A stretch of DNA of 64,000 bases from a virus. Below, one piece after another: positions 3,004 through 64,000 of this stretch. How positions within the stretch are numbered: position 1 is the first letter of the stretch; each line of letters starts with the position of its first letter. The stretch spans positions 32,001 to 96,000 of IMG/VR virus record IMGVR_UViG_3300037485_001872; one strand, 5' to 3'. Position numbers and translations under genes: made by a program. The notes beneath the pieces were generated by a model, which was given only the letters and a program-made list of their open reading frames with translations, was not told where the DNA came from and did no database searches.

Positions 3004-3645
3004 ATGTTTATAAAGTTTCAAACTAAGGTGGTAAAACGTAAACAAGTGGTTAAACGTTTGCTATTCTATTACGAGCAAGCCACAGCCACTGAATTAACGT
3101 ACAATTGGTATGTAGAAGCAAACCAATTTTGCCGTGAATTATCCACAGCTTTTAAAACACCATTGTTTCAAGTTGCTGGCATAGTTTCTGCAATGAGTCC
3201 CCAAAAAAATTGGCAAGAAAATAAAAAGCTTGCCTATCAATTCATGAAAGGTAAACGAGGTGGACAAACTAAGCAGCAAATTTTAAAAGCTGAAAGGTGC
3301 TTGATATGTGACAGTGAAACTGAAATATTTTCGTTGCTAACTAAGAAGGGATTAAAAACAAGTTACTTTTATACTAACTTATTACACCCTGATTTTGACA
3401 GTGGGGTGACAATTGATAGACATGCAATCGGTGCTAGTTTAAATGAATTAAAAGACATTAACACAAACATGAAAGCTGCCGTGTTAACAAAGCCACAGTA
3501 CGATTTTTTTGCCTCATGCTTCAATGATGTAGCAAAGGTCAAAAAAGTATTACCATTACAAGTACAAGCCACAGTTTGGCAAAGCTACAGACGGTTGAAA
3601 GGACTTGTTGAAAGTTATAACACAAACGAAGATATTCCATTTTAG
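3004..3645 (+). CDS. Conserved phage protein (DUF7178-like, possibly HhH-glycosylase-like fold)
   Basis: WY..A, VAGIVSAMSPQKNW..N, G.KT..FY.N, VTIDRHA, P.QVQA.VW motifs. Confidence 0.55.
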   Translation: MFIKFQTKVVKRKQVVKRLLFYYEQATATELTYNWYVEANQFCRELSTAFKTPLFQVAGIVSAMSPQKNWQENKKLAYQFMKGKRGGQTKQQILKAERCLICDSETEIFSLLTKKGLKTSYFYTNLLHPDFDSGVTIDRHAIGASLNELKDINTNMKAAVLTKPQYDFFASCFNDVAKVKKVLPLQVQATVWQSYRRLKGLVESYNTNEDIPF

Positions 3646-36316: not shown

Positions 36317-36659
36317 AAGACTAACATATTTTCACATGGATGGTAGGAATGTAATATGTTTTCCGTATCTTTGCACCATGTTATTTATTCAAGTAATGTA
36401 TTTCCATATAAACTTCTGTCAAGTACCGTATAAATTTTATACAAGAAATGGTCTTTTCGAAAATTATGATATAATAAATTAATATGACAATAATTGATAT
36501 TTTAAAAGTGGAAACAGAAATGAAACGTTTCCAAGAAAGAATGGAGGCCGCTAAAACTAGAATCGCAGCAGATTCATGGGCAGTCCAAGGTTGTAAAGAA
36601 ACTGGAGCCCTAAAAAGGGCAGCTATGGATTTAAAGAATTGTTTAACAACACTTACAAA

Positions 36660-43306: not shown

Positions 43307-43336
43307 AAAAAAGCCCCTATTTGGGGCTTTTTCTTT
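43307..43336. terminator. Bidirectional terminator at convergence of the two gene blocks
   Basis: AAAAAAGCCCC-TATTT-GGGGCTTTTT. Confidence 0.9.
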
Positions 43337-43986
43337 TACATGCTCTCTGGAAAATAATATCGTAAATTACTAGTATTTGGTATTTGTTCCTTTAACATCT
43401 GTGTCACATAAAATCTACTACGGCCATAGTCTTTTGCAGCTAAATTTATAGAAGAGTAAATTTCGTTAGTCTCTATATTAATTACAGGTGTACCTTTTGT
43501 TTTAGATATTTTATCTCTACATTCTTTTGACTTAGGTATTCCTAATAGACTTTTCAACAATCCTCTTCTTGTTCCTTCTGCCATTTGTTTCCCTCTATTA
43601 GATGCTGCTCCTTTTGCTCTTGCTTCTGGAGTCCTTACTTTTCCAATTTGCCATTCTGACATTTTTCTTCTAGTTTCCTCTGAATATACTGGAGGTAATA
43701 AATCTGTGGCAGGTAGTATACAATTTAATCCTACTTCTGGGTCTAATACATTATAATACTCTCCCCAATATCTTTCCTTAATAAATCTATTATCAAAATT
43801 ACATTCTTCAATTATAGTGAAGATGTGGTTTTCCCATCCGTATTTTTGAATTGACCTGTATATGATGGTTTGTCCTACAACCTCACTTCTTTTATAGTTA
43901 CTTTTTCTCTTTGTTATATTTAAAGTAGAACCAACATAAATCCTTCCAGAAGGACTTGTAATCATATAAATCCATGCTTTTCTCAT
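43336..43986 (-). CDS. Free-standing GIY-YIG homing endonuclease with NUMOD3/NUMOD1 repeats
   Basis: WIYMITSPSGRIYVGS, SIQKYGWENH.F, KERYW, GLN, SEETRRKMS, YSSI..AAK. Confidence 0.85.
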   Translation of the reverse strand: MRKAWIYMITSPSGRIYVGSTLNITKRKSNYKRSEVVGQTIIYRSIQKYGWENHIFTIIEECNFDNRFIKERYWGEYYNVLDPEVGLNCILPATDLLPPVYSEETRRKMSEWQIGKVRTPEARAKGAASNRGKQMAEGTRRGLLKSLLGIPKSKECRDKISKTKGTPVINIETNEIYSSINLAAKDYGRSRFYVTQMLKEQIPNTSNLRYYFPESM

Positions 43987-46900
43987 TAGATACCTCCTGT
44001 TTTATCAATAGTATTTATGTTATTATCTAAGGCTTCTTTTTTAAGTTTTTCCTTTTCTAATTTAGATGGTTTTTGAACTGAAATTAAAACTTCACTATTT
44101 AACATACGATAGAAGGAAGTCTTCTCCCTAACCGCATCTGCGTTTCGTAAGTCCATATAGTGTTTGTAATACGTATTTCTCAATAATAGTCTAGCAACTT
44201 TAGGATAACCCTCCCATGTGCCAGAAGTTACAGGGTCAGAAGTCCAATCTTTCACTGTAAATAGTTGAGACATTGTATTACCAGCCATAATAGGTGATTT
44301 TATAATATCTATAACATTCAAGAATCCTGTTGGAGCCTGTGATGAACCAACTTCCGAAGTAGTTCTAAAGTAAATAAATGAAAGGTATTGGATAGCCCAG
44401 TTGTGTTTATTCTTGTCATCATCCGCAGCGGCCATCACTAACATTCCTAGCATCGTTAAAATAGTGAATGCGGCAACATCTAAAGCAATTAATTTCAAAT
44501 TGGCTTGTTCTGTCTTAGATAGACTTCTATAGTTAGACTTAATAGACGAAATAGCCTTTGTAAGCCCATCTTTATAGGCTAATGAGGTTAAGTCAGAGAT
44601 GAAGTGCTTAAATGTAATATAATGACCTTCTTCTTCAATTCCTTGGCGTAAATTTAAGTGCTTTCTCTTAAACCTTTTTTGAACTCCTAATGTAAACCAA
44701 TCCTTGAAGTTTGTAAAGAATTGCATCATAAAGTGTCGACTTGCTGCACTCTTATCGTCAGCTGAGGTTTTAGAATCTATTGTATTATTAGTAGAAATTA
44801 TTTTACTCTGTACACGACTTAATAAAGCATCTGCATATTCTTTACCTATAGCATTTTCTGTGGCTTCACTTAGTTGCATAATTCCCTCTCTATTTTCTAA
44901 TAGATTGTACAAGGAATCTTTACGAAGTGTGTTCCACTTAAATAATAAAGCCTTACTATCAATATTTGCATTATCTGCTCTAAGCTTAAACTCCTCGTAT
45001 GTTAAGAACTTATCACCAACAAGTCTAAAATCATCTAAAACACTAAGCATTACAATATTTGCGTGTGGGGTTGCCGCCATTTCCATAAATGCATATGGAC
45101 TGTCATTTAATGAACGCAATATTCTATTATACCCAGCACTCTTAGTCTTAGTAGCAATTTCATGCACTCCAAAGGTTTCACCTAGTTTGTACAATTTATT
45201 TTGTTTGTTAACCTTTCCTATCTCTGTAGTGTATTCTGGTAATAACTTAGATAGTTCTCCCCCAGCCCATCTACTTGAGTTAGTATTGATATATAAACCG
45301 ACACGGTTGTAAATAGCAAGTTGAATGTTAGATACTAAAGCAGAGGTGATGGCAATTGTTGGAGAAAATCCTAATGCCGCTTTCTTAATCAAATTATTAA
45401 AATGTACGGCCATTCTTGATACATCCACTTCCTTACCATTTTGTAATGTTATGGATGACTTCGCTGAGAGCCTTCTACCGTAGAAATATGCATCCATGGC
45501 TTCTCTATATGCTTCCGCTACATTGGTGGACGCTGGAGCCTTCCCTTTGTCAAATTTAGAGTTTAATAACTTATTCTGTATTACAGAAACATCGGCAATA
45601 GAGTTAATACGTTGTTCGAAGGTATTTGCTGCATTTTGTAATACGGCATAAGAATATATGAAATCATTTGAAACATCCTCCATATCATCCAAATCTCTTA
45701 AATAGTATTTTGGAATAATACGTATGTCTGTATCCTGTCCTTCCACTTGCTCTCCATAATCCTTTTCGTCCTCTCTATTATAGATGACATCTTTTACGCT
45801 ATTTTTAATAGCATCCCAACTTGCATTTTGAATACGTTCATATTTACCTCTTCTAACCTGTGGAATCTTGTTAATATTTCTTCCCTCTTCCTCATACTTA
45901 ATGTGAGCATCTTTGGTTACGGCCTTTAATTTTTGAAGCATTGTAAATTCTTCTAAATTAGTTGTGGCTTGCCCATTAGCATCAGGATTAAATCTACGGA
46001 AGTATTCATCATTTCTCCACTTACTGATTTTTGGTTGTTTAAATCCAAATTCAGAATCGGTTTTATAATCTGGGTTACGTAAATCTTCTCCCTCTTCCAC
46101 CCATTCAAATCTAGTTGAAATAGCCAGGTTATGTAAAATATTAGTTGGAGCATAAGCTGTTGCTTTAGCTGCTTCTAAATCATCCAATAATTTAGTGGTG
46201 GAATAGGTTCCGTCTTTTAGGTTTATTAAAAGCGCATCATATCCCATAGGAGCAAATCTCTTGAAGTAGCTAGTTACACGTTCTCTACTGTAATCGGCCA
46301 CTAACTCTTCCATCCCTCTATTTGTTAAAAGACTTCTAACATCGTCTGAAGAATTCACCCCATATTTTCTATCAAAATAGTCTTCATATGCTTTAAGGTT
46401 TTCTCCCCCACGTTGTACATTTTTAAGAGCTGAAGTGAAACGTCTAACCCGTGATTTATTCTCTTCTGTCATATGTAGAAGAAGAAACTCGGATTCTGGT
46501 TTACCTGAGTCGGCTAAAGCTTTAGTATAAGCTTCGTTTGTTGTATTTTCTGAATAGGAGAAAGGGTCTTCAATCTTCTCTTCATACTTACTTAAAATTG
46601 TATTAACATCTAGGAATAGTTCTTGAATACGGTCTTCTTTTTCAATTATATTCTTCTTTGTTAATTCCCCCATTAAATCGTATTCAATCTCCGCTGGCGA
46701 GTTAGCCGAAGTGAATTGACGTAAGATTTCTTTTTTAGAATTAAGAAGCTCTTCCAACTCATCCATACTAGCCTTCATAGTTCTACTATGCTCAGGTGTT
46801 ATACGGCTATCATTAAGTCTTATTGCATCCACTCTATCTACCATTTTGGTAGTGTTAGCAGTTATTGCATTCCAATAAGCATCACTAAAGTTTAATCCAC

Positions 46901-49900
46901 CATTGGCCATTAAGAATTTGAATGCGGCCTGGGAACCATCTGTAGATTCAATATCTCTCACTGCTGAGAAAAACTCATTTTTTATAGTTTTCTTTTTAGC
47001 CTCCTGTACTTTAACAACTTCGCTCGGTCTAAGTTCAGAGAAATTTTTAGAGAATAAACTTTGTGCCACCTTATTATTCATTTTAGTTTGCACAATTTCA
47101 TCCAGCTTTCTAAGTTGATTTGCAATCTCTAAATCCACTCCTGTTTTTTCCTCACCTGTTTCCGCATTGAAGAAACTTTTACGAGCTTTTCTGTCAGATA
47201 CAATTCTACTTAAATTATATTGGTCTTCCTCTTCAATTTTAGAATAATCCACTGAACCAGAAACACGATATTTTTCTAGTATTTCTGCTTTACGGGAAGC
47301 TAAATTAGCTAGGAACACTCTTAATTCATTTCCAACACCTGCTTCTGTATATAGATTTTCTTTATCTTGATAGTACTTAGCAACCATTGGTCTTTCAAGG
47401 TTTTCTTCATACCAATCATTTTTTGCTTTCAGAAATTTGTCTAATCCCTCATCGGTTAAGTCTGTTTCTACTGGGTATCGTTTTGCTTTTGCAATTTCTT
47501 CTTTTTTCTCATCGGTTAAATTAGCTTCATAAGCATCCTCAATCATTTTCTTTTCTGCATTGTCGAAGTCTTGGCTTCTAATAACAGAAATTAAATAATT
47601 GGACACTGAGGATTCTCTTAAACTTTTGAAACGAGTTATGTTCCAATTGTTTTTCTCAGCATAAGCTATAAGAGGGTTGATAATTTTTAATGTAGCTAGG
47701 TTAGCTAACATATTATTATTGGCAACAATCTTACCTAATAAATTTAAGAAAATATTTGGAGCATGTTCTAGCTGTCCAAAAACCTTTTGTAGAACATTAA
47801 CATCTCTTTGTACGGCATCAAAAGAAGCTTTAATATTCTCCTTAGTTACTACACCACTCTCTGTAGAAGAATCTGGAAGGTTAAGTCCCATTAATGTTCT
47901 ATCTACTATTTGCTCAACATCCTTATTTTCTTGTAAGTATGCTTCCCCCTGGATTCTATGTATCTCAATAGTTTGTTGTTCTAGTTGAGCTACAAGTTTA
48001 TCCTTATTTACATTTGGTTGATTTGGGAAGGTTTTAAATAAAGCAATAAGTCTATCTAACTGTGGAAGGGCTACAGTTGTTAAATATCTGTATTGTGATT
48101 GGTCTCCAAAGTTAAAAGCGGCTCCTGGGGTTTTTTTGTAAATACGAAGCTTGTTACTTAAATTGGTAATCTGTGCTTCATTCATACTAGCTATAACTTG
48201 AACAGCATGAAATTCATCCACTTCATTTAAAGAATTATTTAGAGCCTCTAATTTAACCTCCTCTGTTAAAGTATCATCAGCAAAAGCTTTGTTAAGTGTG
48301 GCTGTATTGGTTCCTATTTTTGCTATCGCTGCATTTAACCTACGAATATCTGATTTTAACGTCTGTGCGCCACTATCTTTAAGCTTTTGTAGAATACGTT
48401 GGTTACTTTGGATGTGTTGCTTCGCAACTTCTAATTCACCTAATAAACGTCTACGTGTTACATCTAATGTATTCACTACAGTGTTATTTACACTATATAG
48501 CACTAATGAACTTTGCTTTAATACATTTCTATCTAGAAACTCAGAATCCTCATTTAAAGCTATCCTTGTAGCCATATCCATATACTCCTGAAGAGCTGTT
48601 CTATGTCCTACATTTAAATGAGCTTGTATTCTATTAATGAAGGAGTTGATAATAGCAATTAACTTTTGAAATAAGGAGGGGTTCCCTGCTGTGTTAGCAA
48701 ATCCCTCTAGAATATTATTTAAAAGAATTTTTCCTAGGATTTCACGTCTAACGGCTTCCTCAAGTTCTTCTCCCTCATACAACTCAGAATACTTTTGATA
48801 GTACTCACCACTAAAAGTTTCCCATTCAGGTGTATTTTCAATTTCTTTTAATAAGTCACGGATTTCTTGTTGGTTTGGGTGCGCTTCTATTATTATATGC
48901 GCCACTTCTTCTGTTAAGTCTTGTAATGTAGCATTATCTGAAAGAGCTACAACACCATTAGCTAAATCTACTAAAGCATTTACCGATAGGTCAGTGCCTG
49001 TACGTACTTTATATTTGGCCGTATATTCTGTAATACTCACTACAGAAATTCCCATTTTATTAAGTAGGCCAAGTAATTTAGATTTTAGTAAATCCTGCTC
49101 CTGTTTTGAAATAGGAACTCCTTTAAATGGTGTGGACTTTTGATATGACAGGTTAAATAAAACATCATGCACCCCGTCTAAATCTGCATCAATTTTCCCT
49201 TTTTCTAAATCAGAGATTGACACTTGTTTAACCCCACCATCTTTGGTTGGTATTTCAATAACACTTTCATCTTTTTGATTAAGGGTGAATGTACCATCAT
49301 TAGAGAGTGTCATTCCTTCTCTACCTAAGTCGGCCAGAGCTTCATCAGAAAGGATGGCGGCACTAACAATTGAGTTTATAGCAAGTTCTCCCTTACCAGC
49401 TAATTTGAACTCTCCATTTGGCATTTGCTTCTTGTTAGGAGCTATTAAACCTTGGCGTAAGTATTTATTTATAAATCCACTAATTGACTTAGGATTACTA
49501 TTACTGTCAATAGCGGCCACCTTTAAAAAGCTGTCAGGATTTTCTAACTTGTATTGGTTATTCATCACCACTAAATCAGCAGTGGCTATATCGAATACAT
49601 CTGGGTTAGTTGTAATCATTATATCGTCTGTAGATATAAATCCCATTTCAATGCTACCAATATTTGTGTTATTTAAAGCATCTGCAAAATTAGTGAACAC
49701 TTTACCCTCTGGGGTACGATAGAATAGCTTAGGTTCTCCCCCTTTGTTTACTAGGGGATTTGCTTTTCCACTGATTTTAACCTTTGGATTTTTTATAACC
49801 ACCTGGGTTTCTCTTTTTCCTGCGGCATCAAAAGTACTTAGGAATACAACATCTGCTTTGGCTGCATTTATCTCAGTTGTTTCATTTTGTCTAGCTACAG

Positions 49901-52900
49901 AGAATGGTACATTAGTTTCTACCCTCACTGTCTCTACTTTTGGTGAATCTACTAGGTAGAAATCTACACCACTTCCTCTATCATACTCTTTGGCCATTTC
50001 ATAAGTTGTGGCCGCAAAAATACCCTCTACATCTGGGTGAGCATTAACTCCTGTCTTTCCATCTATTCCCTTAAAGTAAAGAGAAGGTGATTTCATTTTA
50101 GCCGCTGTAGATAGTATTAAGGCTTTTGCTGTAGGGTGTAATTTTTCTACAGGAACATTTTCTAGTTGTTTTTCAATATCTTCATTGGTAGATGGGGTTG
50201 TCCAATCTCCAAAGAATTTCTTAAATTTCTCTGAGAATACATTTTGGAAAATACCATTAGCATCTTCATTACTTTGGATGTGTGGGTTGGCAGCTATTTC
50301 TGAGAATAGTTCTGAAGCTACTTGAGGAGTTGGAGCTATTTTATTAGCATCAATCATATCCTCCACTGTTTTGTACATTTTCTTGAAATATTCAGCATGG
50401 AGTTGAGGATTAGAATGAAAAGATTTTTCTAACATATTTTCATTTCTATCTGCCTCCACTGTAACATTCATCATATCATCAAGGGCTGTTCCTTCATATA
50501 CGGCAAGATTATATATATTGGCGTGAGAAATAACATCAGCATTATCTTTTAAGAATTTAATTGTGTTCTCATACGTTGCTGCTGTTTCTTTTTCAAAACC
50601 AATGATTAAATTTGGAATAAATTTCATTCCATTTTTTCTAATAATTTGAACGGCTTCTGCATTTAATCTTTCAGAGTTTGGTTTACTCATACCACGCATT
50701 ACAGAGTCGTTATTAGACTCTACACCAATTTCTACTAAAGCTATACCAGCTTTTTGCCAAAATCCTGGATTACTATCAATCTTTTTAACAGTGGCTGAGG
50801 TAGTTTGGATAATGAACCCTTTAAATCCTGGTTGTTGCTCCTTAACTCTTTGGTAAACATCTTCCAAATAAGTATAATTATCTGCCTGGCCAAATGTTTT
50901 ATCATCTAAGTAGATGTATTTAGCATTTAATTTTGAAATATTTTCAACTTGCTCATCAATATTCTCCTTTGTTATTTTTTCAATCTTCTTAACAACAGTA
51001 CAGAAAGCACAATTAAATAAACATCCTTCTGACATTTTTAGACGAGGAATAATTTCCATCCCTTTGAAAACATCATACTTATATCCATCTTTAAAATCAT
51101 ATCCAGCTTCTAACACCCCGTCTTCCATTGTATCAAAAGTAGAAGCATTTGTAGTGTTAAATTTACTTGAAAGATTAGGAATATAACCTCCTAACATGAA
51201 GTTTATTGATGGGTTGTCTTTTACAAGTGTTTGAGCTGTAGATAAATTGGCATCTAATACAGAAAGCATTACCTTTTTATACCCTGCTTGTTGAATAAAG
51301 TTAAGGGTTTCCTCTGGGTCACGCATTACATACATGTCCATATCTTTCCCTACACTATTATTAACAGCTGCTATCCAGAATGGAACCTCCATAAAGTCAA
51401 CGCTTCTATCATACCCCTCCACTTTAGAATACACCTTATCAAAATAATCATCAAAGATTTGTCCTTGTTCTGTAACATTTCCTTCACGTTGTCTATCCAA
51501 TATGTATTGTGAGCTAACTTGAATAGTTAATACCTTATCGGCATTATCTTTTGAAGGATTTTGGTTTACATAAATATTCTTTTGATTTAAACCATCATGT
51601 GCTGCTAATGCTTCTGTATATGTAGGAAACCCTTTAGTATCTTTAAATGTAGATGATGGTGTTAATGATGTATTTTTTTCAAAACTAGAAAGTCCTTCAA
51701 TTTTAAAATTAGGACGGGTGGTTTCTTTCGAAAAATATGTGTTTGCTTCTTGTAATTTTTCTCTTACATTATCCCCACGGAACGTATTGAAATAAGCTAT
51801 TTCTTGTTGCATTGCTTTTACATCACCATTCACCACTGCTAATGCTAATTGACGAGCATGCTCTTGCGCAATTGACATTACAGGTTGTGCTTCATAAGCG
51901 GCTCTAAACAAGTCAAGGCGGTCTTGATTCATTGAAGATACTTGTGCATAACTATCTATTGGAGAAAGTCTATCTGAGGTAATTTTTCCTAAGAAATCTT
52001 CTATCTTATTTATCTTTTCAAATATATAAGACGGGTCTAAAAATGTATTTTTGTATTTTGCAAGTTCTCTTAATACATCTCCTGCATTCTCTATTTTATA
52101 TTTCCAAACATTTCCACCCTCTCCTTTAAAAGACACTTCTAAAAGTCTTTCTGCATTAGCATCTTGGTGGTCATATACATCAACTTCTTGTGGGGCTAAA
52201 TATTGAAAGTATTCTCCTTTAAGTATAGCTCCTGTAGAACGAGAAATAAATTCTCCTAAAGGCATGTTCGCTAATTCTTCTGATGAAGCATCTTTAAGTC
52301 CAAATTGCTTGGCCACCCATTCATAAATTGTAGAAAGCCAATCTTTTAGTTGTTGTAGGAAGCCTTTATCATTTGATAAATTGTCAAGTTCTTTTGCTCC
52401 ATACTTTCCAATTAAGTTAGCTCTCACCTCATCCACAAGTCTTTCAAGATGTTGCTCAGGAGATTCCTCTGCTGCCCTAGCATAAACAGGGTTGTTTAAA
52501 TCCATTCCTGTTGCTGTTGCTAAGTCACTAAGTTGGGTTTGTGAGTTTCTTACAACAAATTGTGTCATAATGTTATGTACATCAGTGTATTCCTTCTTTA
52601 ATTCTGTATAAGAAATATTAGATAGGTCTACCCCTGCAAATTTATGGTTTAAAATATCGGCCACTAATCTGGCTTCTACTTCCCCAAATAATAAAGAATA
52701 ATTTAAGTATTTGGCATCTGTCTTATTTGTATTAAAGAAGTAATCTAATTCATATTGTGCAGCACTTAAAATATTACTTTCATTTACTGAAGGAGAGTTA
52801 TTTTTTAGATAAATAGCAATAGCATCTCGTACTTCTCCTAATTTATTAGAAGAATTTCCTATTATTTTTTTGGCTTCGTTAAATATTGTATCACTATTTC

Positions 52901-55900
52901 CTCCTCTTGGAAAATTCTCTATTTCCTGAATAGCATGACTTACTTCATGTATAAGAGTTAAAGCATAATATTTACTCCCATTAAGGTCGCCAGACTCGAT
53001 ATTGTTGATGATATTTCGAACCTCTCCTCCGTTGTTCCCAACTCCTGATTCTCCAATATTTTGCTCTCGGCTACTAATACGAATAAGTCCATTAGAGTAA
53101 GACCCGTTAGCTGTGTCAGCTTCTGATTTTTTGTAGAAATGTACATTTATATTTTTTAATTGTGGATATAATGTGAATAAACTAGTGTTTTCTAATACTT
53201 GGTCTAGGGTGTATTCTTTCCCTGGAGATGTATCTAGTCCTTTTTTAATATTAAACTCTTGTAATAGTTCATTAGAGAAATATTTCCATTGGCCTTCCTC
53301 TTTAAACCATCCTGTTTTATTTTCTATCTGTTGTGGGGAAGCTCCTTGAATTTCTAACTCCTTTGCCTGATTAAATAAAGAATTTAGCACGTTTAGGTTT
53401 TTTGCTCCTTGCTCTCCTACTATTTGAAAAAGAGGAATATTGTGTTTACCTCCTAATACCTCTAATAGAATAAGTTGTTGTTCTCTCACAACATCCTCTG
53501 TTTTACTAAGTAATCTGTTTCTTCTAGCTTCGGGTGTAAAAATATTTCTATAAGTTACGTTACGAGCCTCTACTTCTCCTGCTAATTTTTGATATAAATT
53601 ATATGGGGAAAACTCTGAAATTCTATCTCTAATAGGATTTAAATATTCATCTAAAGCATAAAGAACATCCATATAATCCTCTCTAGCTGCAATTTCCATC
53701 TTAATACGTAGTCTTTCAGGAAGATTATCCCACTCTTCTTCTATTTGTTTTGCTAACTCTTCGGATATTACTAAATCCTCTTTAATTAAAAAATCAGCCT
53801 TAAAGATTTTGTTTAGTTTTTTTTCTGTAATATCATCTAATAGTTCCACTATATAAGACATTTCCCTTAATACGTTCTCCTGTACTCTTAGATTTTCAAT
53901 CTCATTTAGTTGTTCCTTGGTAAATATTTTATTTAAATTTTCTAATACTATTTCTGTGTTTCCACCTTTTGCAAAAAATTCTATAAATTGAATAGCATGT
54001 TGAAGCTCATGTATTAAATCTCCAAATATGAGTCTTTCTTCTTTAACATTTATTTCAATTGAGTTTGTTTCGGGGATATACCATGAATTATTTCTTACAC
54101 GTGGGTCTATAGATATGGTGACTTTCATATCTTTTAGTTGTGGGTATGCTTTAAATAGTTCTGAATTGTTTAACACTTGACTAAGTGTATACTCTCCATT
54201 AGTGCTTATTTTTAGGGTTCCATCTGCAATTTCATACTTCCACTTTCCTTCTACCCCCTTTTCCCAACCTGTAGCTAAAAGGATTTCTTTAGGTGTCTTA
54301 CCTAATTCTTCTAATTTTTGTGCCACACTTAGATTCTCTAACACGGCTGTAGCATTTTCTAGTCCTTTAGCCCCCTTTTCTCCTATAATTTGAAAAAGAG
54401 GAATACCTTGCTTTACCTCATTTTGTAGTTCTGGGGTGATGTCTATTTTATAAATAGATGGACTAATTGAATTTAATTCTTCCACTATCTTAGTAGCTTC
54501 ATCTTTAGTATATTCTATGTCTTTTCCATTTTTATTATTCCATTCCCTAGCAATACCATTCCATATAGAAAAATTACCATTTGGTTTTTCCTCTATATAT
54601 GATGCTGCAAGTAGTGCATTATCGTCTTCAAACTTAGTAGTGGTTGGGGTTTGTTTAAAAACACTCTTAGCGACCTCCCCAACAGTGCCTAATGTTCCTT
54701 TAACAGGATTTCCGTAAAAGGCATTCATCCCTTCTCTACGTGGCATAGAAACACCTGATTCCTCAGTTTGCATTCTATTCCATAACCTGTCAATTAATTT
54801 TTGTTTTTGTGCCTCGTTACGTTCTCTACTTAACACTTTATCAACAACTGCTGCAAGTTGTTCTTTAGTTTTAACTACAACATTATTAGCAGAAAGCATT
54901 AAATTATCAACATCTGTATTTTCAAATGCTGTTCCTCCCACTTGTTCTTTGATATTAATACTCCACCCCTCTAAAGGAGTGTATTTTGGTTTATCATTTA
55001 TTGATGAATACTGGGCTCTCTCTTCAGGAGTTAATTTATCCTCCCATCCATTTCCATATTTGTTATAAAGGTCATTAACTAAAGTTTGTCTTTCTTCATT
55101 CCTTTCTTTGTTTCTTTCTGTAGCTTTTTGCCATTGGATTTTTTCACTTCCCCAACGTTCAAATTGTTGTTCACCATTTGTCCAAGAAATACTATCAACA
55201 CCTTGTTTTACGGCTTCCTTTAAAGCAACTTTAAAGGCAAGTTTCACCCATTGTGGGGTACTTGTTATGAAAGGAGCTGTTGGTATTTTTGATTTAATGT
55301 TAAAATTATTATCAAATAAAGCATTGTAATCCTCCTTATTTTGATTAAAATTTAATATGGCTTCGCTATTAACATTTAATTGTCTTTCATATGCAATTAT
55401 TTCTGCCTTTATGAGTGTATCAGCAAATGCTTGTCTAGATGTATGATTAAAAAAGTGTGCATCATCTTTTCTATTATTAAAATCCAACATTTTTTCGTCA
55501 TGTCTTTGTTGAATCATCTCTAATCTAGTAGCAAGTGAGGTTTCAGAAAGTACTTTTATTCTATCTTCTGTTGCACTACTATTTAAATATTCAGATAGGT
55601 TTATTAATTTTGCATATTCCTTTTGACTATCTTCCCATCTAGTACGAATTTCTGATAGTTGTTCGGGGGATAATGCTGCTTTATCTGCTGTTATATTTTG
55701 AGCATTATATTTCTGACCCCAATCGCTCTGAAGCTCTTCGAGAAATAACGTAGATGCACCATTTATATCTGTACGGGTATCCATACGTAAATGTACTAAT
55801 ACGTTGGGTTCATCCCAATGTGCTGAAGAGAAGTTTTTTGATTTTGAAATATCTGTTCCTATGTCCTCTAAATATTTATTATACTCTTCTTCAACTCTCT

Positions 55901-58900
55901 CTGGACTCCCAAATAATATACCATTATTATTAGAGGCTACCATAAATTCATTTCGAGTCATTGGGGCTTGTTTTGGAAGCACCACTAATATTTCCCTATA
56001 ATTCTGTCTGGCTCCTTTTTCAGTATGTGCTCCCCACTTTACTTCTTTTTGTTCCTTAAAATACTCTGTAATTTGGTCTTTTGCTTCTGTGAGTGTTTCT
56101 GGATACAATCGCATATCCAATTTCATTCCCCCTGGTTTATAAACATGGAAATCCTTATCCCCTCTTTTTTCAATTCTCCACCCTGCATTTTTAAATTCAA
56201 CAATATTTCCTATAGGAGATGTTCGTTCACTTCTTACCCAAGCTTCAGTGTCTAATTCATTACCTGATATTTTAGCATCAAGTTCTTCCAGTTTTTTATA
56301 AATATCACCAAATTCTTGTTGGTATGTAGCCTCCATTTCTTCTCCTGCCTCTCTTAGGTCTTCTCCTAATTGTGCATATCCACTTTGAGAATAACTTCCA
56401 GTCCACTCATCCATTTCCCTTCGTATTCTTGTAACTTTTTCTTGTATTGCCTCTGCCGCTGGAGATACTCTATCCCTTATTTGTTGTTGCAGAGCTGCTT
56501 TTTGCTTATTGAATTCTTCTGCTTCTTTTAGTGTTAAACTACCCTTCACAACCTCAACCACCTGTACACGATTGTCCTTTAAGAATTGTTGTATTTCGGC
56601 TTTTGTAACACTTCTATTTTGTTCTTTCAACCAGGCGTTTAACCCAACCCATTCTGCTTCTGACCCTTTTCCAAATTTATCCAACCATTGTTTTGCTGGA
56701 ATTTTTTCCACCTTACTTTCAGAAATTAGTTTTTCTAATGGTGAATAAAAACCATTAACTACTTCTGCCGCAATTGGGCGTACTTCTGTCGGTACTCCTC
56801 CAATATTCATGGTGATAGTACTACCTACAGCTTCTGCATATTTTTCATCTAAAGCATTTTGCCATTGTTGGGCTATTGGTGTTAATAATTCATTCCCTCT
56901 TTCTAAAATAGCTTGTGCTTGTTTATTTCCATCTTTTGCTGCTTCTTTTAATAGGGCTTGGTGAAGATGCGCCACCTCATGAAGCGTAGTTTCATTAGAT
57001 AGTTTTTCAGGATTTAAATAAATCTTTCCGTCAAAATACATTCCATAAACAACCCCTACTGGAGTTTTTAATTCATATGTATCAAACTTTCTATCAAAGT
57101 TTAACTTAGTTACTACAGGAATACCCATAGCTTCTGCTTGTGCTTTTAGCTTATTAAAAACAGACGGCTCCATCTTAGTAGCATCTAGTTGTATACTTTT
57201 AATATACACCAAAGTATTCTCAATTCCTGCGTCTCCTCCTATTTTAAGTTCCTGTTCTCCTATAAAGGTTCCTATTTCTTCACTACCTTTTTCAATTTTA
57301 GTATTTTCTTTTAACTTTTGTAAGTCTAAATCAATTCTAACTCCTCCATCTGCAAATGTTACAGGAGACCCATCAGGTAGATACCAACGAGTAGTGGTAA
57401 GTTCTGGATGGTCAAATTGGTCAGAGGTAGTTGTAGATACTCCTGGATACTCTCCTTCATCTCCTACGATGATATTACTGTCAAGTATTGAAGCTAAATT
57501 CTTAGTTGTAGTGTAATGGTAAGTAGTGGGTGCATTAATATCTCCCTCAAGACCATATGGATTATCTTGAACATTTAATAGCTTATGAAAAGCCATTTGC
57601 TCTGTTCTAAGTGGTTTTGCAAACTCTCCTTTTCCAGGTTCCACTTGGTCATATGTAAGTTCTTTATTTTGCCATCTATCATAAAGCTTATTTTGTTCCC
57701 TTGTAAAATTCTCATCTACAACATTTCTTAAATCAATTAAATCTGATGGTGATAATTTTACTCCTTGTTTTAAAGCATCAATGTATTGTCTAAAATTTTC
57801 TAAAGTGATGCGTTCTCCTCCAAAAGTTGAGGGGGCATTAAATTTTAGTTGCTCTTTAATAGTGATGGCTTTATCATCAAATACAACGTAATTGCGTTCT
57901 TTAGAAATATTATCTGTAACTCCTGTTCCTAAACTATCAGGTGGGTATTGTATTCCATCAATTCCAGCTCTTAATAAAAATTCTGAGGCAGCTTTTGCTG
58001 AACCATCAAGACCTCTAAATTGTTTTTGTAGTTCTGAATATATTTCTGCGGCTGTATATTGAGGAGAAGCTAAACCTGATGTATTAATTCCTTCTTTTTT
58101 CCCTTGTTTTGCTATCTTTGCAGCTTGTGTTGGGGTTAGTTTTTGATACCAATCTAAGAAGTCATATTGGTCTGGTGTTTTTCCTTCATGTAACGCCACT
58201 TTATAAACCACCCCAGAATTTGTTAATTTTGTCTTTATAGTTTCATTTAACAATGTTTGGGCTTCATCAATGGCTTTCTGTTGATACTCAACATCATTTC
58301 CATATTCTAATTCCTTTTGAGAGTCCTTAATAAAATCACGGATGATATTTTTTATTTCTTCTTTAACAGATGCATTTTTATTAAATTCATTTTTTAAATC
58401 TATTTCTGCTATTGTAAGCTCATCTACAAGTCTTCTTTGAGTTTCATTTTTGGCATTTTTATATCCAACTACAACACCTTTTTCATAGATTTTCCACTTT
58501 CCAATAGAAATATCCTGAATCTCAGTGTCGGCCATTTCCTTTGCATAATTGTCTGCAATATTTTTAAGAGAAGTGAAATAAATTCCATGCCCAAATACGC
58601 TTCCACCTTGACCTTCTCCAACTTTTGACATATCAAAATTATCGAAAGTACGACCAGTACCATGAAATGCTTCCACCTGTGCTAGATAAGCTGAATGTTC
58701 CGCAATAATACGGTTCATCTCATTCACATCTGTAGAAATGACTTCATTCGGGGTGAACTTTTTGAAAAGGTCTTTGAAGTAGTTTATAAGTACCTCTGGA
58801 GAAGTTGATTCCGCTGTTGGTGTAGCTTGAAAACTAGGAATTTGTGCACTTAAATAGTTGTACACTTTACTAATAACACCTTTCTTGTCTCTTTTTATTA

Positions 58901-59303: not shown

Positions 59304-61451
59304 TTATCCGCAGTGGTCTATTGTTTGTTCAATATTTTGACGCTCTGTTTCTGTGTAAAGTGGTGTACTTTTAAAAGAGGAAAATGCAGAGGATTTTAAT
59401 GTGGCATCTTTGGCAGAATAGTCTTCATTAACAGATACATTTTTATCAATAACGTTATATGTAGAATCATTGATACCAACTAATGGGGTGTAATGTGCTA
59501 TATTAGCTGTAGTTTCTATCTTCTCATAAACCCTACCATCAAGTCTTACAAAATCATCTTGTATATTCTCTATATTAATAATAGGGCTACCTATGGTTCC
59601 AGAAAATTTTCCTTTATATTCTCTCACTAGTTTTGGGTTATTTACATAGAATGAACGTAAAAATGGTGTTGTTGGACTCGCTGCTATTTCCTTTGGCTCA
59701 AAGATGTTTTCCAGATTTTTATTTATTATACTATAATTTTTTAAATCATTTAAATCAGAAACGGTTTTTATTTCTGCTATTGTAATGGGGTCATTATTTT
59801 TTAATACAATCTCACCATTTTCAATTTCAAATGCTTTACTTAAAATATCATTCCCCACCATTCTTTGGTAGAAGTCTGAAATAAATTCTCCTGTTAAATA
59901 TGTTACATCCCCAGTAAATTCTGAATAGTTATTAAATTCTTGCTTAACATCCACTTTATTTTGGGTGCTACTAAGTGGGTGGCCAAATAAAAGTTTATAT
60001 ATCACCATCTCAGGGGTGATGTTATTTAAAGAGGCTTTTTCATTTAAATACCTCTTAACATCTTCTCCTGCATTTTTTGCCTTATTTGGTCTAAATGTAT
60101 TTGTACCGTCATAAGCTGTTGGGTAGTATGCTACATCTGGTAGGATTGATGGGTCTTCTTCCACCATCACCATTAATTCATTAAATAACTCTTCTTGAGG
60201 TATTCTATCAATGAGTTGATACACATCATCTTTCACCTGTAGAAGGGAAGATATTTCAAATGTTTCTATGGCCGACTCTGTAGTTTTATTTACCACTAAA
60301 GATAGGTCTGATGTTTCTATCACCTTTGTCTTTTCTACAGGAGAAATAGAGAAGTACTCGTCATATATTTGACTAAAATTGTCAACATCTTCACTTGTAG
60401 GGGCTACACTTAAATTGGTTGTAAATTCAACTAGGGCATTTAAAAACTCTAAGGTTTGTGGTTGTGTTTTAGACTCCTGTACTTCTACTAAGTCAGAAAG
60501 GTTTATTCCCATTAGAAGAGACTCTTTGGAAATGTCTTCTAATATGGTGGCCACTTCCTTTGGATATGCATCCCACACTTCTGGTGATATTCTTAATAAG
60601 GTGTTAAAGTGTTTAATAATCATAGCATTACTCATGCCTGTCTTTAAAACACTCTCCAATAGATTACGGGTACTATCCACCACTTGTTTTTCATTTATTA
60701 AATAAGGAACCTTTTGTAGCTTTGAGTATTTCTCATATAATGATTTTGCATATGTAGCATCGGAATTATACTTATCTATTATAGATTGAAATGGGAGTGT
60801 TTGCACTACATCGCTGAATTGTTCTTCAGTTACACCTATTAAATAATTTTCTAGTTCCTTTTCTACTAAATAAGGATTTAAATGAGTTGTCTTACCAATG
60901 GGTGAAACTGAGTCTGTAGTGCTTAATACTTCTAATGAAGGTGAAAATTGGATATTAGGTGTCCTATCTAATTTTTTAATGACATTATAAATCTGTTCCC
61001 GTAAAGTTGGTGTAGTGATAATAACATCAATTTCACTATTGGTGTAAAGTTTAGATGCTATTAAGCTTTGTTTAGTGGGTTTAAAAACACCATTTGAAAT
61101 AAAAGCTGTTTTAAGTAGTGTGGAAAGCTGTGATAGGGATGTGATGGGAAGTCCTAAAACACTATTCTGTACCTCCACTATTTCTTTACTAGAAAGTCCT
61201 TGTTTTGCTGAGGAATTTTGTACATAATCTAACACTGTTTGGGCGTAATATTCCCCATTAGCATCTTTTTGTACATTATTATGAATAGTGGTAAATTCTG
61301 GGGTGTAGGAAATAGCAAAGTATTCGAGTGCTTTTTCTTCCTCACCCAATATGCTGAGTAAGTTTTTATATAATAAGGAATCTTCTCCATTTGGGGCATC
61401 TACGGATGTTATTTTTCCATCCACTCGCATTATCTGACAACTTATTGACAT
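59304..61451 (-). CDS. Large putative virion/cargo protein
   Basis: 715 aa; N-terminal C.I.R..G.I..V.APNG..S.LY..YTPEF..D.NGE motif shared in part with the 4974-aa protein. Confidence 0.7.
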   Translation of the reverse strand: MSISCQIMRVDGKITSVDAPNGEDSLLYKNLLSILGEEEKALEYFAISYTPEFTTIHNNVQKDANGEYYAQTVLDYVQNSSAKQGLSSKEIVEVQNSVLGLPITSLSQLSTLLKTAFISNGVFKPTKQSLIASKLYTNSEIDVIITTPTLREQIYNVIKKLDRTPNIQFSPSLEVLSTTDSVSPIGKTTHLNPYLVEKELENYLIGVTEEQFSDVVQTLPFQSIIDKYNSDATYAKSLYEKYSKLQKVPYLINEKQVVDSTRNLLESVLKTGMSNAMIIKHFNTLLRISPEVWDAYPKEVATILEDISKESLLMGINLSDLVEVQESKTQPQTLEFLNALVEFTTNLSVAPTSEDVDNFSQIYDEYFSISPVEKTKVIETSDLSLVVNKTTESAIETFEISSLLQVKDDVYQLIDRIPQEELFNELMVMVEEDPSILPDVAYYPTAYDGTNTFRPNKAKNAGEDVKRYLNEKASLNNITPEMVIYKLLFGHPLSSTQNKVDVKQEFNNYSEFTGDVTYLTGEFISDFYQRMVGNDILSKAFEIENGEIVLKNNDPITIAEIKTVSDLNDLKNYSIINKNLENIFEPKEIAASPTTPFLRSFYVNNPKLVREYKGKFSGTIGSPIINIENIQDDFVRLDGRVYEKIETTANIAHYTPLVGINDSTYNVIDKNVSVNEDYSAKDATLKSSAFSSFKSTPLYTETERQNIEQTIDHCG

Positions 61452-61455
61452 ATTG

Positions 61456-64000
61456 TTATTTCTTTTTACGTGTTTTACATTTTTTACTCAACTCTTCATT
61501 TGCGGCCTTAGTATTCTCTTGTGTTGGAGTTGACACTACATCGGGAGCTACATCTACAATTGATGGTTTCATTTTTCCAATGTAGTCCATTGAAAGTCCT
61601 CCAAAAATAGGAATTGTTTTGTCTATGTTCATGAATTTATCTAGAACGTCTTTAGAGTTCACAAATCCTCCTATGGTGTTTTCTCCTTCTGAGCTTCTAA
61701 TTATTATAGTGGCATTTAGTTTTGCTGTTTTCTTGATTTGCTCGAAAATAGCTTCTTTTTGTTCCACTGTAACTCCCGCTTCTAAACTAACTATTATAGT
61801 GTCGTGAGATGAATAATCATAATCTTCCCCTCTGGCTGTCACTAAATTAACTTTAGAACCCACTGCATCTAGAACTTTTTGTCCTAAAGCATTAGCTTCC
61901 TGTGAAATATCTACACCAGTTACTTTATGTTGTTTTTTCTCAATTAGTATTGGAGAAAGTGGAATGGCTCCTGAACCTATAAATACAACATTACCTTTCA
62001 TAAAACGGGTTTCTTTTTGTAAAGTTTCTACATAGTCAGCATAATATTCAAAATCTTCTAGTGTTTTAGTTCCCGCAATTATTTCATTTGCAAAAGCTAC
62101 TTCTCTATCATAGTCTTCTTGGTTTAGGTTTTGTAATAATTGGGGTGTTTCTTTGAGGGATTGTTCTACTGCCTTAACTTTCTTAAAAGCCAATATCTTT
62201 TTGCGACCTAATTCAACGTGTGATGCCATTCTATGTTGTCCATCATGGAAAAATCCGCTATAAATTACAGGTGGCAATTCTTCCCCTCTTTTTAATAGTT
62301 TCACCATATCATTGACTCTATCCATGTGTTCTAAATCACCATCGTAATCATCAACTAATTTATCTTTGTCGATTTTAGTATTGACAGAAACATAAGTTAA
62401 TTCATATTGACCACTAAATTTATTAGAGCTGTTATCAGCATAAGCCCCCATTCTGTCGTATATTTTAGTCAAATCTTCCGCAGAAACAACTTCACCTAAT
62501 TTAATGCCACCCCATTCGCTTCTAATATCTTCCTTCACATCTCCTACACCAACACCAACACTACCTGCTTGGGGTGTTTCTTTGAGGGATTGTTCTAAAA
62601 TTACATCAACTTGTTCACCTCCGACTACAAGTGTAGCTACTTTTTTACCATAAAAAGGAGATGACTTATCTGTTCCTTCACGAATTTCAGTAACTCTTAC
62701 TGGAATATTTTCCTTTCCTTGTGATTCTTTTATTGCTTGTATTAACTCTAATGCACTTTCATTTTCTTCGGATTTTAAATCTATGCCTAAATTTTCTACT
62801 GCTTCTTCAAACGTGTTAAAACCCTTATCATTTTGTTCTCTACTCTCTCCTTGTTTATTTGTAGTTTGTGTTTTAAATTTAGTTGTTTTTACACCATTTT
62901 TTTCTGTTGTAGTTACAACCACCTTAACCATTTTACCCGAGCCATCATTTACAGTTTTATATGGTTTTTCCAATTTACTTCCCACATCTCCCCCTACACC
63001 AACACTACCTACTTCTTCTTCGGTTTTACCTTGTTCTTTGGGTAACAGTAAATCTTCTACAGTTTTTACTAATTCAGGATTAGTGTCGTCTAATTTTGCT
63101 TTGTGGTATGCTTCCGAAACATCTCTTGCAGATTTATATTCATCTCCAAATTTATCTTGAAAATCATCAAACCAAGCAATATCTAAATTACCTAATGCAG
63201 TCCCTGTACTTTCAATATCTTTTAATGTATTATTAGATACCTCATTTGTAGTAGCATCTTCTCCCCCTACACCTACACTCCCTGCTTTTGGTAAAGCTGT
63301 TGCTTGACTTTTTGGGGCTTCAAGTAAAGGTGTAGCTTGACTTTTTAGTTGAGAAAGTATAGATAATTCGTTGCTGTACTTAGTAATTTCATCAAATGCT
63401 CTTTTGGGTTGTTCAAGTAATAATGTAAGTGTATCTCCTAAGTTATTTGTACCTCTTAACCAACCTATATAAGTACCTTTATCTAAATTTTCAGTAAATT
63501 TGGGAATACCTACCACCTCTGCAAAATAATCTAATATAATTTGAGTTGCTGTAGTTCTTGTATTAACTTGGGAATCAGGTAGTGAATTTCTTCTTATATC
63601 TACATCGGATACTTTTACTTCTTGGGTAGGGACTACTGGTTGAGCTTCTTCATCCACTCCTTCAAATAGTTCCACCTCCTCATTCGGCTCCCCAAAATCT
63701 AGTACAACCTTTGGTGAATGAAAAACATCCCCACGTAAATCTAAATGTATACTTGCATTTTCAATTAAAGTTTGTTCCATATCTGTTTCTGGTAAAAGCC
63801 AGTCCGACAAAGATACGAATTTATTTACATTAGACAATAAAGATTTTATTTTATCAATCTTTGCTTTATTAAGGTTTCCTGAAGTGATTTGTAGGGGCTG
63901 AACATCAATACCATTTCTCATTAATAAGAGATTTAGATTAGATGCTTTTTCAGCCTCTTCCACTTGTGTATTCATAATAGCATCCACTTCTCCTGAAACA
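61456..64000 (-). CDS. C-terminal part of a large modular protein with ParB/Srx-like and nicotianamine-synthase-like domains
   Basis: Frame open to window edge; LPPVI..DGQHR; FEYYADY..FIGSGAIPLS..VD..K.AIF..IIIRSSEG. Confidence 0.75.
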   Translation of the reverse strand, partial: VSGEVDAIMNTQVEEAEKASNLNLLLMRNGIDVQPLQITSGNLNKAKIDKIKSLLSNVNKFVSLSDWLLPETDMEQTLIENASIHLDLRGDVFHSPKVVLDFGEPNEEVELFEGVDEEAQPVVPTQEVKVSDVDIRRNSLPDSQVNTRTTATQIILDYFAEVVGIPKFTENLDKGTYIGWLRGTNNLGDTLTLLLEQPKRAFDEITKYSNELSILSQLKSQATPLLEAPKSQATALPKAGSVGVGGEDATTNEVSNNTLKDIESTGTALGNLDIAWFDDFQDKFGDEYKSARDVSEAYHKAKLDDTNPELVKTVEDLLLPKEQGKTEEEVGSVGVGGDVGSKLEKPYKTVNDGSGKMVKVVVTTTEKNGVKTTKFKTQTTNKQGESREQNDKGFNTFEEAVENLGIDLKSEENESALELIQAIKESQGKENIPVRVTEIREGTDKSSPFYGKKVATLVVGGEQVDVILEQSLKETPQAGSVGVGVGDVKEDIRSEWGGIKLGEVVSAEDLTKIYDRMGAYADNSSNKFSGQYELTYVSVNTKIDKDKLVDDYDGDLEHMDRVNDMVKLLKRGEELPPVIYSGFFHDGQHRMASHVELGRKKILAFKKVKAVEQSLKETPQLLQNLNQEDYDREVAFANEIIAGTKTLEDFEYYADYVETLQKETRFMKGNVVFIGSGAIPLSPILIEKKQHKVTGVDISQEANALGQKVLDAVGSKVNLVTARGEDYDYSSHDTIIVSLEAGVTVEQKEAIFEQIKKTAKLNATIIIRSSEGENTIGGFVNSKDVLDKFMNIDKTIPIFGGLSMDYIGKMKPSIVDVAPDVVSTPTQENTKAANEELSKKCKTRKKK
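62140..62597. repeat. 29-bp perfect direct repeat pair
   Basis: TTGGGGTGTTTCTTTGAGGGATTGTTCTA at 62140-62168 and 62569-62597; offset 429 bp = 143 codons. Confidence 0.9.

Follow-up and report, generated by a model that had tools for sequence, protein, structure and literature searches.

A radical SAM module within a giant, cargo-type protein predicted from an uncultured crAss-type phage

An intact radical S-adenosylmethionine (SAM) module, the cluster cysteines of which are nearly the only cysteines left in its carrier, is embedded in a giant protein predicted from an uncultured crAss-type phage. The DNA in question is a stretch of 64,000 nucleotides (nt), positions 32,001 to 96,000 of the IMG/VR virus record IMGVR_UViG_3300037485_001872, which as a whole is termed the window here, and the protein, P0001, is the product of an uninterrupted minus-strand open reading frame (ORF) of 4974 amino acids (aa) at 43986-58910. 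The module is conserved throughout a family met almost exclusively in viruses; the C-terminal part of P0001 is homologous to phage proteins detected in virions by mass spectrometry (MS); the carrier is purged of cysteine; and a domain of the Pfam family DUF7178 is recurrently linked to the module. The explanation that would join these features is that of a functional radical SAM module on a crAss-type cargo scaffold, acting after ejection and most likely on DNA, and to this explanation as a whole we give an even chance.

The radical SAM module and its family

An initial annotation of this DNA quoted eight motifs for the module, and all eight are present in order, in one minus-strand frame, between aa 2510 and 2808 of P0001: PFWIAAV (aa 2510-2516), KKVMLSVL (2545-2552), FMLGG (2571-2575), SEGCLFNCAFC (2627-2637), YLDDKTF (2667-2673), EIGVES (2727-2732), NLIIGF (2767-2772) and YEGT (2805-2808). 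Its placing of the CxxxCxxC signature at 51000-51023 was exact (CLFNCAFC, aa 2630-2637). The module does lie in the region to which it was assigned, 50370-51530, though its homology extent is 50310-51470, about 60 nt off; the plus-strand translation of the module coordinates is full of stops. The description of a complete radical SAM module inside a giant polyvalent-type protein also holds. The Pfam Radical_SAM hidden Markov model (HMM) scores 39.9 bits on the whole of P0001, above its gathering cut-off of 29.5, and 44 bits on the excised 387-aa module (E 3.5e-11, profile positions 3-166 of 166), and an AlphaFold2 model of the module, made from an alignment of 24 sequences, has a mean predicted local distance difference test score (pLDDT) of 90.1, with helices after the core. 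PF04055 is matched by every one of the 24 family members checked. Among 24 family sequences of 35-46% identity there are 33 invariant columns, those of the core comprising C150, C154, C157, Y187, D190, K191, E247, G249, E251, N287, G291 and E295. From Y187 onwards these residues, belonging to YLDDK, EIGVES and NxxxGxxxE, stand at what we take to be the SAM-binding motif positions of the superfamily. Judged by its sequence, the module is intact and under strong purifying selection, and it is predicted to be a functional radical SAM enzyme that is selectively maintained.

How widely is the module distributed, and in what company? The same module of about 390 aa occurs in 65 other giants (proteins of 2735-8705 aa), at 37-50% identity over some 90-99% of its length, and the likeness takes in the front domain. 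When 1.84 billion cluster representatives (clusters at 50% identity) were searched exhaustively with HMMER, there were 2320 matches at E <=0.001 and 392 at <=1e-10, with 288 clusters at <=1e-30, and nearly all of the best 150 matches lie within long proteins. IMG/VR has 78 loci with the module, a set that is not de-replicated and includes some near-identical members (71 distinct sequences); at 55 of them the module is embedded in a longer ORF, the longest exceeding 5200 aa, and at the other 23 it is a stand-alone gene. Since prokaryotes, at one genome per species (185,579), have only seven loci as against these 78, the family appears to be essentially viral. Five of the seven are on contigs of metagenome-assembled genomes, and the other two (L094, L097) are in isolate assemblies of the aerobic Alphaproteobacteria Halovulum marinum and Aliirhizobium smilacinae, presumably within prophages, which means that phages of anaerobes are not the only ones to have the module. 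No homolog of the C-terminal scaffold of P0001 was found by phmmer or blastp among 208 other family proteins, and beyond the module P0001 has hardly anything in common with the other giants; the module therefore sits in different scaffolds elsewhere, and as such it seems to be a mobile bead. By tblastn of the phage proteins, few genes are common to this phage and the 78 IMG/VR loci, and in Pfam scans of six other giants bearing the module the only additional domains were GNAT, SprT-like and DUF7178.

The cysteines of P0001 number four in 4974 residues, at positions 3, 2630, 2634 and 2637, and the last three are those of the CX3CX2C motif. Our own ORF call of the full record (134,122 bp) has 155 other ORFs, with a cysteine content of 1.41%, and the binomial probability of finding one or no cysteine outside the motif in 4971 residues of P0001 is about 2e-29. 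The motif is present in 66 of 66 giant relatives, and in all 71 distinct IMG/VR sequences. At most five cysteines are found in 64 of the 66 giant relatives (2700-5500 aa), three of them always those of CX3CX2C, and the two exceptions have 7 and 10. Embedded IMG/VR copies have six or fewer in 52 of 55 cases, and stand-alone copies (n=23, 368-439 aa) have 3-12. The three embedded exceptions carry a CRHQCTFC motif and show no cysteine depletion (L026 with 11, L037 with 63 and L056 with 14), and giants of this subgroup may not be packaged. Among 22 stand-alone and 49 embedded sequences no further cysteine column is conserved; the best reaches 8 of the 22 stand-alone ones.

Virion-type proteins have a similar composition. 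Cysteines over length are 0/534 for crAss001 gp46, 1/2341 for gp47, 1/1349 for gp49 and 3/2412 for gp50, and in Cellulophaga phage phi17:2 they are 1/1914 for gp036 and 1/1957 for gp039. The large proteins adjoining P0001 give 2/715, 1/2354, 0/831, 1/1036 and 0/694. In the coordinates of the full record (G000:C1), 93456-108381 and then 108381-114437, the cysteine-poor minus-strand block (1/2354, 0/831, 1/1036, 0/694) gives way to phrog_37948, a 'virion structural protein' of 2018 aa that has 36 cysteines, and it is at this protein that there is a sharp compositional boundary within the virion gene module. A cysteine purge that spares three cluster ligands is a simple sequence signature by which cargo proteins could be recognised, and it can also be used as an argument that the cluster is needed.

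A carrier related to virion cargo

Of what kind is the protein that carries the module? Its aa 3128-4937 match phrog_37651, a 'virion structural protein', at E 5.4e-99 over profile positions 96-1893 of 1914, and tblastn with the last 2107 aa matched 54 phage records, with a query coverage of 99% for csAssE-Sib and 85% for the Cellulophaga phages phi17:2 and phi4:1, and with the last ~600 aa matched in crAss001-like Bacteroides phages. By blastp, P0001 aa 3128-4911 align with residues 96-1866 of the 1914 of phi17:2 gp036 (E 1e-106), and two collinear matches to crAss001 gp49 have E values of 9e-25 and 5e-7. The phi4:1 counterpart of phi17:2 gp036, gp035, is annotated with 'experimental MS/MS proteomics' analysis, and for crAss001 virions Bayfield et al. 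2023 (PMC10172136) give gp45, gp46, gp47, gp49 and gp50 as detected by MS. Gene order points the same way: the series of 2354 aa, 715 aa, 108 aa and the giant mirrors gp039, gp038, gp037 and gp036 of phi17:2. On homology, synteny and composition we infer that P0001 is packaged in the virion, and consider this well supported. Packaging had been a supposition of the initial annotation, and it is supported, if indirectly, through the homology of the C-terminal ~1850 aa to the MS-detected phi4:1 gp035 and crAss001 gp49. It is in this way that P0001 provides the cleanest link yet of the module to proven cargo, as the same polypeptide ends in a scaffold with MS-detected virion homologs.

The likeness to crAss001 gp49 (with gp47 and gp50) and to phi4:1 gp35 and phi17:2 gp036 thus extends from a homologous and collinear C-terminal ~1850 aa to syntenic neighbours and a near-absence of cysteine. 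Unlike P0001, proteins of the crAss001 gp49 and phi17:2 gp036 type have 1349-1914 aa, and are without the effector array of about 2800 aa and the radical SAM module. As to what such proteins do, the function of the crAss001 cargo proteins is given, in as much of PMC10172136 as is accessible, only as 'RNA polymerase-associated'. A phmmer search found no PDB sequence match for the C-terminal 1875 aa of P0001, and the reading of the C-terminal half as the crAss virion RNA polymerase itself, which may yet hold, was set aside on this one sequence search.

P0001 also has the character of the polyvalent proteins described by Iyer, Burroughs, Anand, de Souza and Aravind (2017, PMC5512222), being a giant phage protein that joins unrelated enzymatic domains and lies at the end of a virion gene block. 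In that paper polyvalent proteins are predicted to be injected with the DNA, their domains acting at the earliest phase of infection. A point of difference is that 'radical' occurs 0 times in its main text, so that no radical SAM domain is among those treated there, though the supplementary domain lists could contain it.

The domains of P0001 are disparate: Radical_SAM and LPD23 are above their cut-offs, ART-PolyVal is just below, and there are three HExxH motifs. The radical SAM module is the last bead of an effector-domain array of about 2800 aa that precedes the conserved crAss-type cargo scaffold. An ORF of csAssE-Sib just upstream of the csAssE-Sib structural protein matches P0001 aa 2866-3129 (E 3e-13), and residues 4-17 of the same ORF weakly resemble P0001 aa 2-14 (14 aa, E 0.1; 58869-58907 of the window), which is consistent with the array being an insertion behind the N-terminal motif of an ancestral cargo protein.

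Chemistry, time of action and target

To which known enzymes is the module closest? The initial annotation saw in it the signature of class B radical SAM methyltransferases. As worded this finds no support, for the core motifs are common to methylthiotransferases, AprD4, ArsL, Elp3 and HemN-type enzymes. The NCBIfam matches, among them PhpK (54 bits), BchE (46), MiaB/RimO (TIGR00089, 40), a ladderane B12-radical SAM family (38), AprD4 (E 7.7e-5), ArsL (E 3.3e-4) and TIGR04072, all fall well short of the respective cut-offs and do not extend beyond the core, and the best PDB match of the family profile is RimO (E 4e-11, over the core), with 9ccb and AprD4 next. Compared as a whole fold by Foldseek and VIA-align, the module matches two-domain radical SAM enzymes over both domains, at Z 17.7-22.1 and 312-348 residues: QCMT/MgmA (9ccb) has Z 22.1, AprD4 (6fd2) 21.8, CysS 20.2, RimO 20.0, MiaB 19.9, an MtaB model 19.6, OxsB 18.8 and TsrM 17.7, so that MgmA/QCMT, AprD4, CysS, RimO and MiaB are tied within about 2 Z units. 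With the class B class I enzymes QCMT/MgmA (9CCB), CysS (9N1D), OxsB (5UL4), TsrM (6WTF) and TokK (7KDX) the module shares a two-domain layout, an N-terminal Rossmann-type domain and a partial TIM barrel with CX3CX2C, and for QCMT/MgmA, CysS, OxsB and TsrM the match spans 315-348 residues. Unlike class B enzymes it reaches no curated family cut-off and is below that of PF02310, has a short front domain with three strands by DSSP, is without a C-terminal substrate domain of known types, and is embedded in a phage protein of 4974 aa.

Seven residues of the front domain (G19, E28, P30, W32, S70, G94 and Y96) are invariant in 61 sequences and G95 nearly so, and a separate model of the domain reaches a pLDDT of 93.0. 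Three lines, each weak, place it nearest to B12-binding domains. A VIA search against 48,161 representative chains gave 11 at Z >=8, and nine of the 11 are cobalamin or corrinoid binders: photocobilins (8.9, 8.5), MetH (8.7, 8.5, 8.2), 4jgi (8.6), MtaC (8.3), AerR (8.2) and 1y80 (8.0), where photocobilins and AerR are taken by us to be B12 binders. Among 30 language-model neighbours of module residues 1-135, 28 carry PF02310 (scores 0.92-0.94); these neighbours share only 127-145 of 256 features, and the tool grades such matches as a lead. Alignment with MetH 740-900 by MAFFT, in three modes, sets D25 on D757, M27 on H759, P30 on G762, S70 on S804 and G94-G95 on G833-G834. The classical B12 fingerprint is, as we understand it, DxHxxG...SxL...GG, of which MetH S804 and G833-G834 would be the SxL and the GG. 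The DxHxxG part is confirmed in PMC12931638. No His is present at the position equivalent to MetH H759, which is M27 here and W in the family consensus; its absence is to be expected because all solved B12-radical SAM enzymes, as that review describes them (PMC12931638), bind cobalamin base-off and without a His ligand, and the module is in this respect like the solved class B class I members. The front domain is probably a diverged, His-less homolog of B12-binding domains.

It is a further step to a bound cofactor, and several results weigh against taking it. The B12-binding pattern is much weaker than the initial annotation implied: with a cut-off of 32.1 bits, PF02310 reaches 14.2 (E 0.04), and among 24 family members no more than two match it at E <=1. 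A profile of the 61 front-domain sequences found no cobalamin protein in the PDB, its best match being unrelated (E 0.67), and gave no alignment with E. coli MetH by HMM (score -1.4). At E <=0.001 Foldseek had nothing for the front-domain model, and CheY-like receivers headed its ranking; in that of VIA the cobalamin binders (Z 8.0-8.9) share their level with a CheY-like protein (8.1) and a designed Rossmann protein (8.0). DSSP shows only three strands in the ~135-aa domain, against the five that PMC12931638 gives for class I B12-radical SAM enzymes. Lastly, for the whole module the cobalamin-free AprD4, at Z 21.8, stands beside the best cobalamin enzyme at 22.1. That the module binds cobalamin is a matter of about even odds. 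A weak hint from elsewhere in the genome is the gene of a ribonucleotide reductase of the adenosylcobalamin-type RTPR kind, from which it might be that the phage lives on host cobalamin. The initial annotation's statement that the genome uses a B12-dependent ribonucleotide reductase is weakly borne out by this very diverged protein (Table 1), for which there is no Pfam match at 1e-4.

Could the module instead be a cobalamin-independent radical SAM enzyme, with a front domain that is left over without a cofactor or serves to bind substrate, as in AprD4 and ArsL, and a chemistry of e.g. elimination, lyase activity, repair or 3-amino-3-carboxypropyl transfer? We regard this as a strong contender, a little short of an even chance. 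Homologs of AprD4 and ArsL bind no cobalamin despite their Rossmann-related domains, according to PMC12931638; the fold match to AprD4 (6FD2; rmsd 3.8 over 342 residues) equals that to any cobalamin enzyme, AprD4 is among the best of the weak PDB sequence matches, both proteins are among the NCBIfam matches, and the sub-threshold PF02310 score, the profile search that brought up no cobalamin protein and the three strands are all in its favour. However, identity to AprD4 and ArsL is only about 14-15%, and their biology is that of aminoglycoside and arsinothricin biosynthesis. Moreover E28, P30, W32, S70, G94 and Y96, and nearly G95, are at loop positions that MAFFT aligns with the MetH B12 fingerprint, where invariant residues of the family coincide with the MetH SxL and GG, cobalamin binders lead both the structural ranking and the language-model neighbours, and the RTPR-like reductase suggests that the phage depends on host cobalamin. 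A methylthiotransferase of the MiaB, RimO or MtaB type, thiomethylating host tRNA or a ribosomal protein, is by comparison very improbable, although RimO is the best core match in the PDB, TIGR00089 scores 40 bits, and MtaB, RimO and MiaB share the two-domain fold as a whole and rank high in the fold comparison (Z 19.2-20.0). The TIGR00089 cut-off is 251, far above that score, and the auxiliary-cluster cysteines are missing: there is no cysteine in the front domain and no conserved extra cysteine column, and UPF0004 (PF00919) and TRAM have no Pfam match at E <=10 in the module and none among 24 family members, so this candidate was rejected. Just as little weight is given to a decayed or purely structural relic without catalysis. 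P0001 is, it is true, a prediction from an uncultured phage; but the 33 invariant columns persist at 35-46% identity and take in all the cluster and SAM-motif positions, the three cluster cysteines alone are kept in proteins otherwise purged of them, and the family extends to the 288 clusters at E <=1e-30.

There remains the question of when the module would act. For an enzyme acting after ejection, the course of events would be that P0001 is packed in the virion, is extruded partly unfolded ahead of or with the DNA, and refolds in the host cytoplasm, where the module would gain its iron-sulfur (Fe-S) cluster, and possibly cobalamin, from host pools by way of the host Fe-S machinery. SAM-derived radical chemistry, possibly a B12-mediated methylation, would then be directed at a macromolecule early in infection, and the target would most likely be DNA, with the module acting alongside the phage's own Ogg-like DUF7178 protein. 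Two points tell against this course. The module is absent, by tblastn at E <=1e-3, from 50,697 phage records that include cultured relatives with proteomics, and unfolding through the tail would strip the Fe-S cluster, so that activity after ejection would depend on re-loading. An alternative is that the module works late in the producing cell, on progeny DNA, virion proteins or a small molecule, and is afterwards an inert passenger of the virion. An oxygen-labile [4Fe-4S] cluster would probably not last in a stored virion; the crAss001 cargo proteins are argued, in PMC10172136, to unfold partly so as to pass tail constrictions of <50 Angstrom; and the stand-alone copies with normal cysteine content in 23 of the 78 IMG/VR loci are ordinary cytoplasmic genes, which means that the chemistry does not require delivery. 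We nevertheless think action confined to the producing cell unlikely, if by no means negligible, as embedding in a cargo scaffold in 55 of the 78 loci, together with the strict cysteine purge, argues that selection sees the packaged form, and as the polyvalent-protein model (PMC5512222) puts such domains at the earliest phase of infection.

If the module acts after ejection, why on DNA? At the stand-alone loci the sole recurrent neighbour, in 8 of 23 within eight genes, is a protein of ~170-270 aa that belongs to Pfam DUF7178. An HMM places DUF7178 no more than 10 kb from the module in 38 of the 78 IMG/VR loci, 9 of 23 stand-alone and 29 of 55 embedded, and 27 of the 29 copies at embedded loci are in the same ORF, downstream of the module; these are raw counts without a background rate and are lower bounds, many loci being cut by contig ends. 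A profile of six DUF7178 sequences matches, over ~100 residues, the N-glycosylase/DNA lyase of M. jannaschii (Methanocaldococcus) in the PDB (3fhf, E 9.1e-5; 3knt, E 1.6e-4). The invariant Lys and Asp of DUF7178 align with the GYKEAS Lys and the IIDRH Asp (3knt has Gln at the Lys), columns which we presume to be the catalytic residues of Ogg enzymes. This supports a predicted Ogg-like, HhH glycosylase-type fold for DUF7178. The HMM found no DUF7178 copy inside P0001; the phage has DUF7178 as a separate gene, the protein of which keeps seven of the seven family-invariant residues, K118 and D138 included. At three stand-alone loci (L067:9156-9956, L078:1256-2062 and L079) the gene directly upstream of the radical SAM gene falls in a single cluster, and in L067, the one scanned, the upstream gene is that of a D12-class N6-adenine DNA methyltransferase (PF02086, E 4.5e-20). 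The DUF7178 linkage and the D12-class methyltransferase tilt the presumed target toward DNA. Pulling the other way, the DUF7178 gene of the phage is about 47 kb from the module, on the other strand among plus-strand genes, 40 of the 78 loci have no DUF7178 within 10 kb, and RimO, the closest core sequence match, modifies a protein.

The most specific form of the idea is that the phage injects a cobalamin-dependent radical SAM enzyme which edits DNA in the first minutes, with the Ogg-like DUF7178 protein as a base-flipping or base-excising partner and with Fe-S and B12 scavenged from the host. We consider this improbable, more so than action late in the producing cell. If true, it would amount to a new radical-based DNA modification, or to a DNA-repair or anti-restriction route, and the module would be the first Fe-S radical enzyme known as virion cargo. 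To our knowledge the injected phage enzymes known so far are cofactor-free or nucleotide-using, such as ADP-ribosyltransferases, acetyltransferases, peptidases, methylases and RNA polymerases. An oxygen-sensitive Fe-S radical enzyme as cargo would raise the question of how it keeps in air, passes a tail and regains its metal in the host, and also that of the target for which radical chemistry is needed from the very outset of infection. Since the family is large, almost virus-only and has a DNA-glycosylase-like domain as a repeated companion, it may be the mark of a pathway directed at DNA that has yet to be described. The three components, polyvalent proteins, crAss cargo proteins and two-domain radical SAM enzymes, are known separately; their combination is not described in the literature that could be searched (main texts, and few subscription journals), where no account of a radical SAM domain in polyvalent or cargo proteins was found, nor any mention of DUF7178; 'radical SAM' occurs 0 times in PMC7824862. 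What is new here is the homology of the carrier to MS-verified cargo, the cysteine statistics that include verified cargo and stand-alone copies, the alignment with the MetH fingerprint, and a phage that encodes the DUF7178 partner apart from the module, in a gene of its own.

Layout of P0001 and other genes

The features of P0001 and of the genes considered with it are collected in Table 1. The N-terminal 2480 aa have no match among PDB sequences by phmmer, and NCBIfam has nothing for aa 2868-3099, nor for the 715-aa neighbour.

Table 1. Positions in the window of P0001, its parts and other genes of the phage
Feature	Position	Strand	Basis
Giant polyvalent-type cargo protein P0001	43986..58910	-	Uninterrupted ORF; 4 Cys in 4974 aa
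Radical SAM module, aa 2481-2867 (Rossmann-like front domain, core and C-terminal helices)	50310..51470	-	Homology extent against 65 giants; AlphaFold2 pLDDT 90.1
Cys-free front domain, aa 2481-2615, Rossmann/flavodoxin-like, B12-binding-domain-like	51066..51470	-	Motif DFWE[IV]PxW ... FSxLDVNK ... GGY
Radical SAM core, aa 2626-2787	50550..51035	-	Pfam PF04055, 44 bits (cut-off 29.5)
CLFNCAFC, CX3CX2C ligands of the [4Fe-4S] cluster, aa 2630/2634/2637	51000..51023	-	Cys positions; kept across relatives
Conserved scaffold start directly after the module, aa 2866-3129	49524..50315	-	csAssE-Sib ORF alignment, E 3e-13
C-terminal scaffold, aa 3128-4937	44100..49529	-	phrog_37651, E 5e-99; tblastn and blastp to virion cargo proteins
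ART-PolyVal-like stretch, aa 82-135	58506..58667	-	PF18760, 29.3 bits, just under cut-off 31.2
LPD23 (large polyvalent-protein-associated domain 23), aa 1518-1567	54210..54359	-	PF18838, 68 bits (cut-off 27); two stretches, second copy reported
Three HExxH zincin motifs, starting at aa 644, 1634 and 1988	52935..56981	-	Regular expression; weak SprT-like and DUF6782 matches
Hydrophobic transmembrane-like stretch, aa 4805-4830	44421..44498	-	Kyte-Doolittle, 19-residue window >1.8
715-aa upstream neighbour, 2 Cys	59304..61451	-	Homolog of phi17:2 gp038 (virion structural protein), blastp E 2.6e-18
2354-aa neighbour, C-terminal part within the window, 1 Cys	61456..64000	-	phi17:2 gp039, E 1e-68; crAss001 gp47, E 8e-22; phrog_32390
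738-aa RTPR-like protein (adenosylcobalamin-type class II ribonucleotide reductase-like), 17 Cys, very diverged	29390..31606	+	TIGR02505, 75.8 bits (cut-off 340); PDB 1L1L, E 6e-6
Separate 213-aa DUF7178 gene, 4 Cys	3004..3645	+	PF23802, 104.7 bits (cut-off 27)

On the downstream side of the giant gene is that of a 216-aa GIY-YIG-type homing endonuclease (43336-43986, minus strand; phrog_314, E 2e-24), the start codon of which overlaps the stop of the giant gene. The window also has, at 36639-38276 on the plus strand, a gene for a Cpn60/GroEL-like chaperonin of 545 aa (PF00118, E 3e-51), and this chaperonin of the phage's own could be relevant to the folding of giant proteins or the refolding of cargo proteins.

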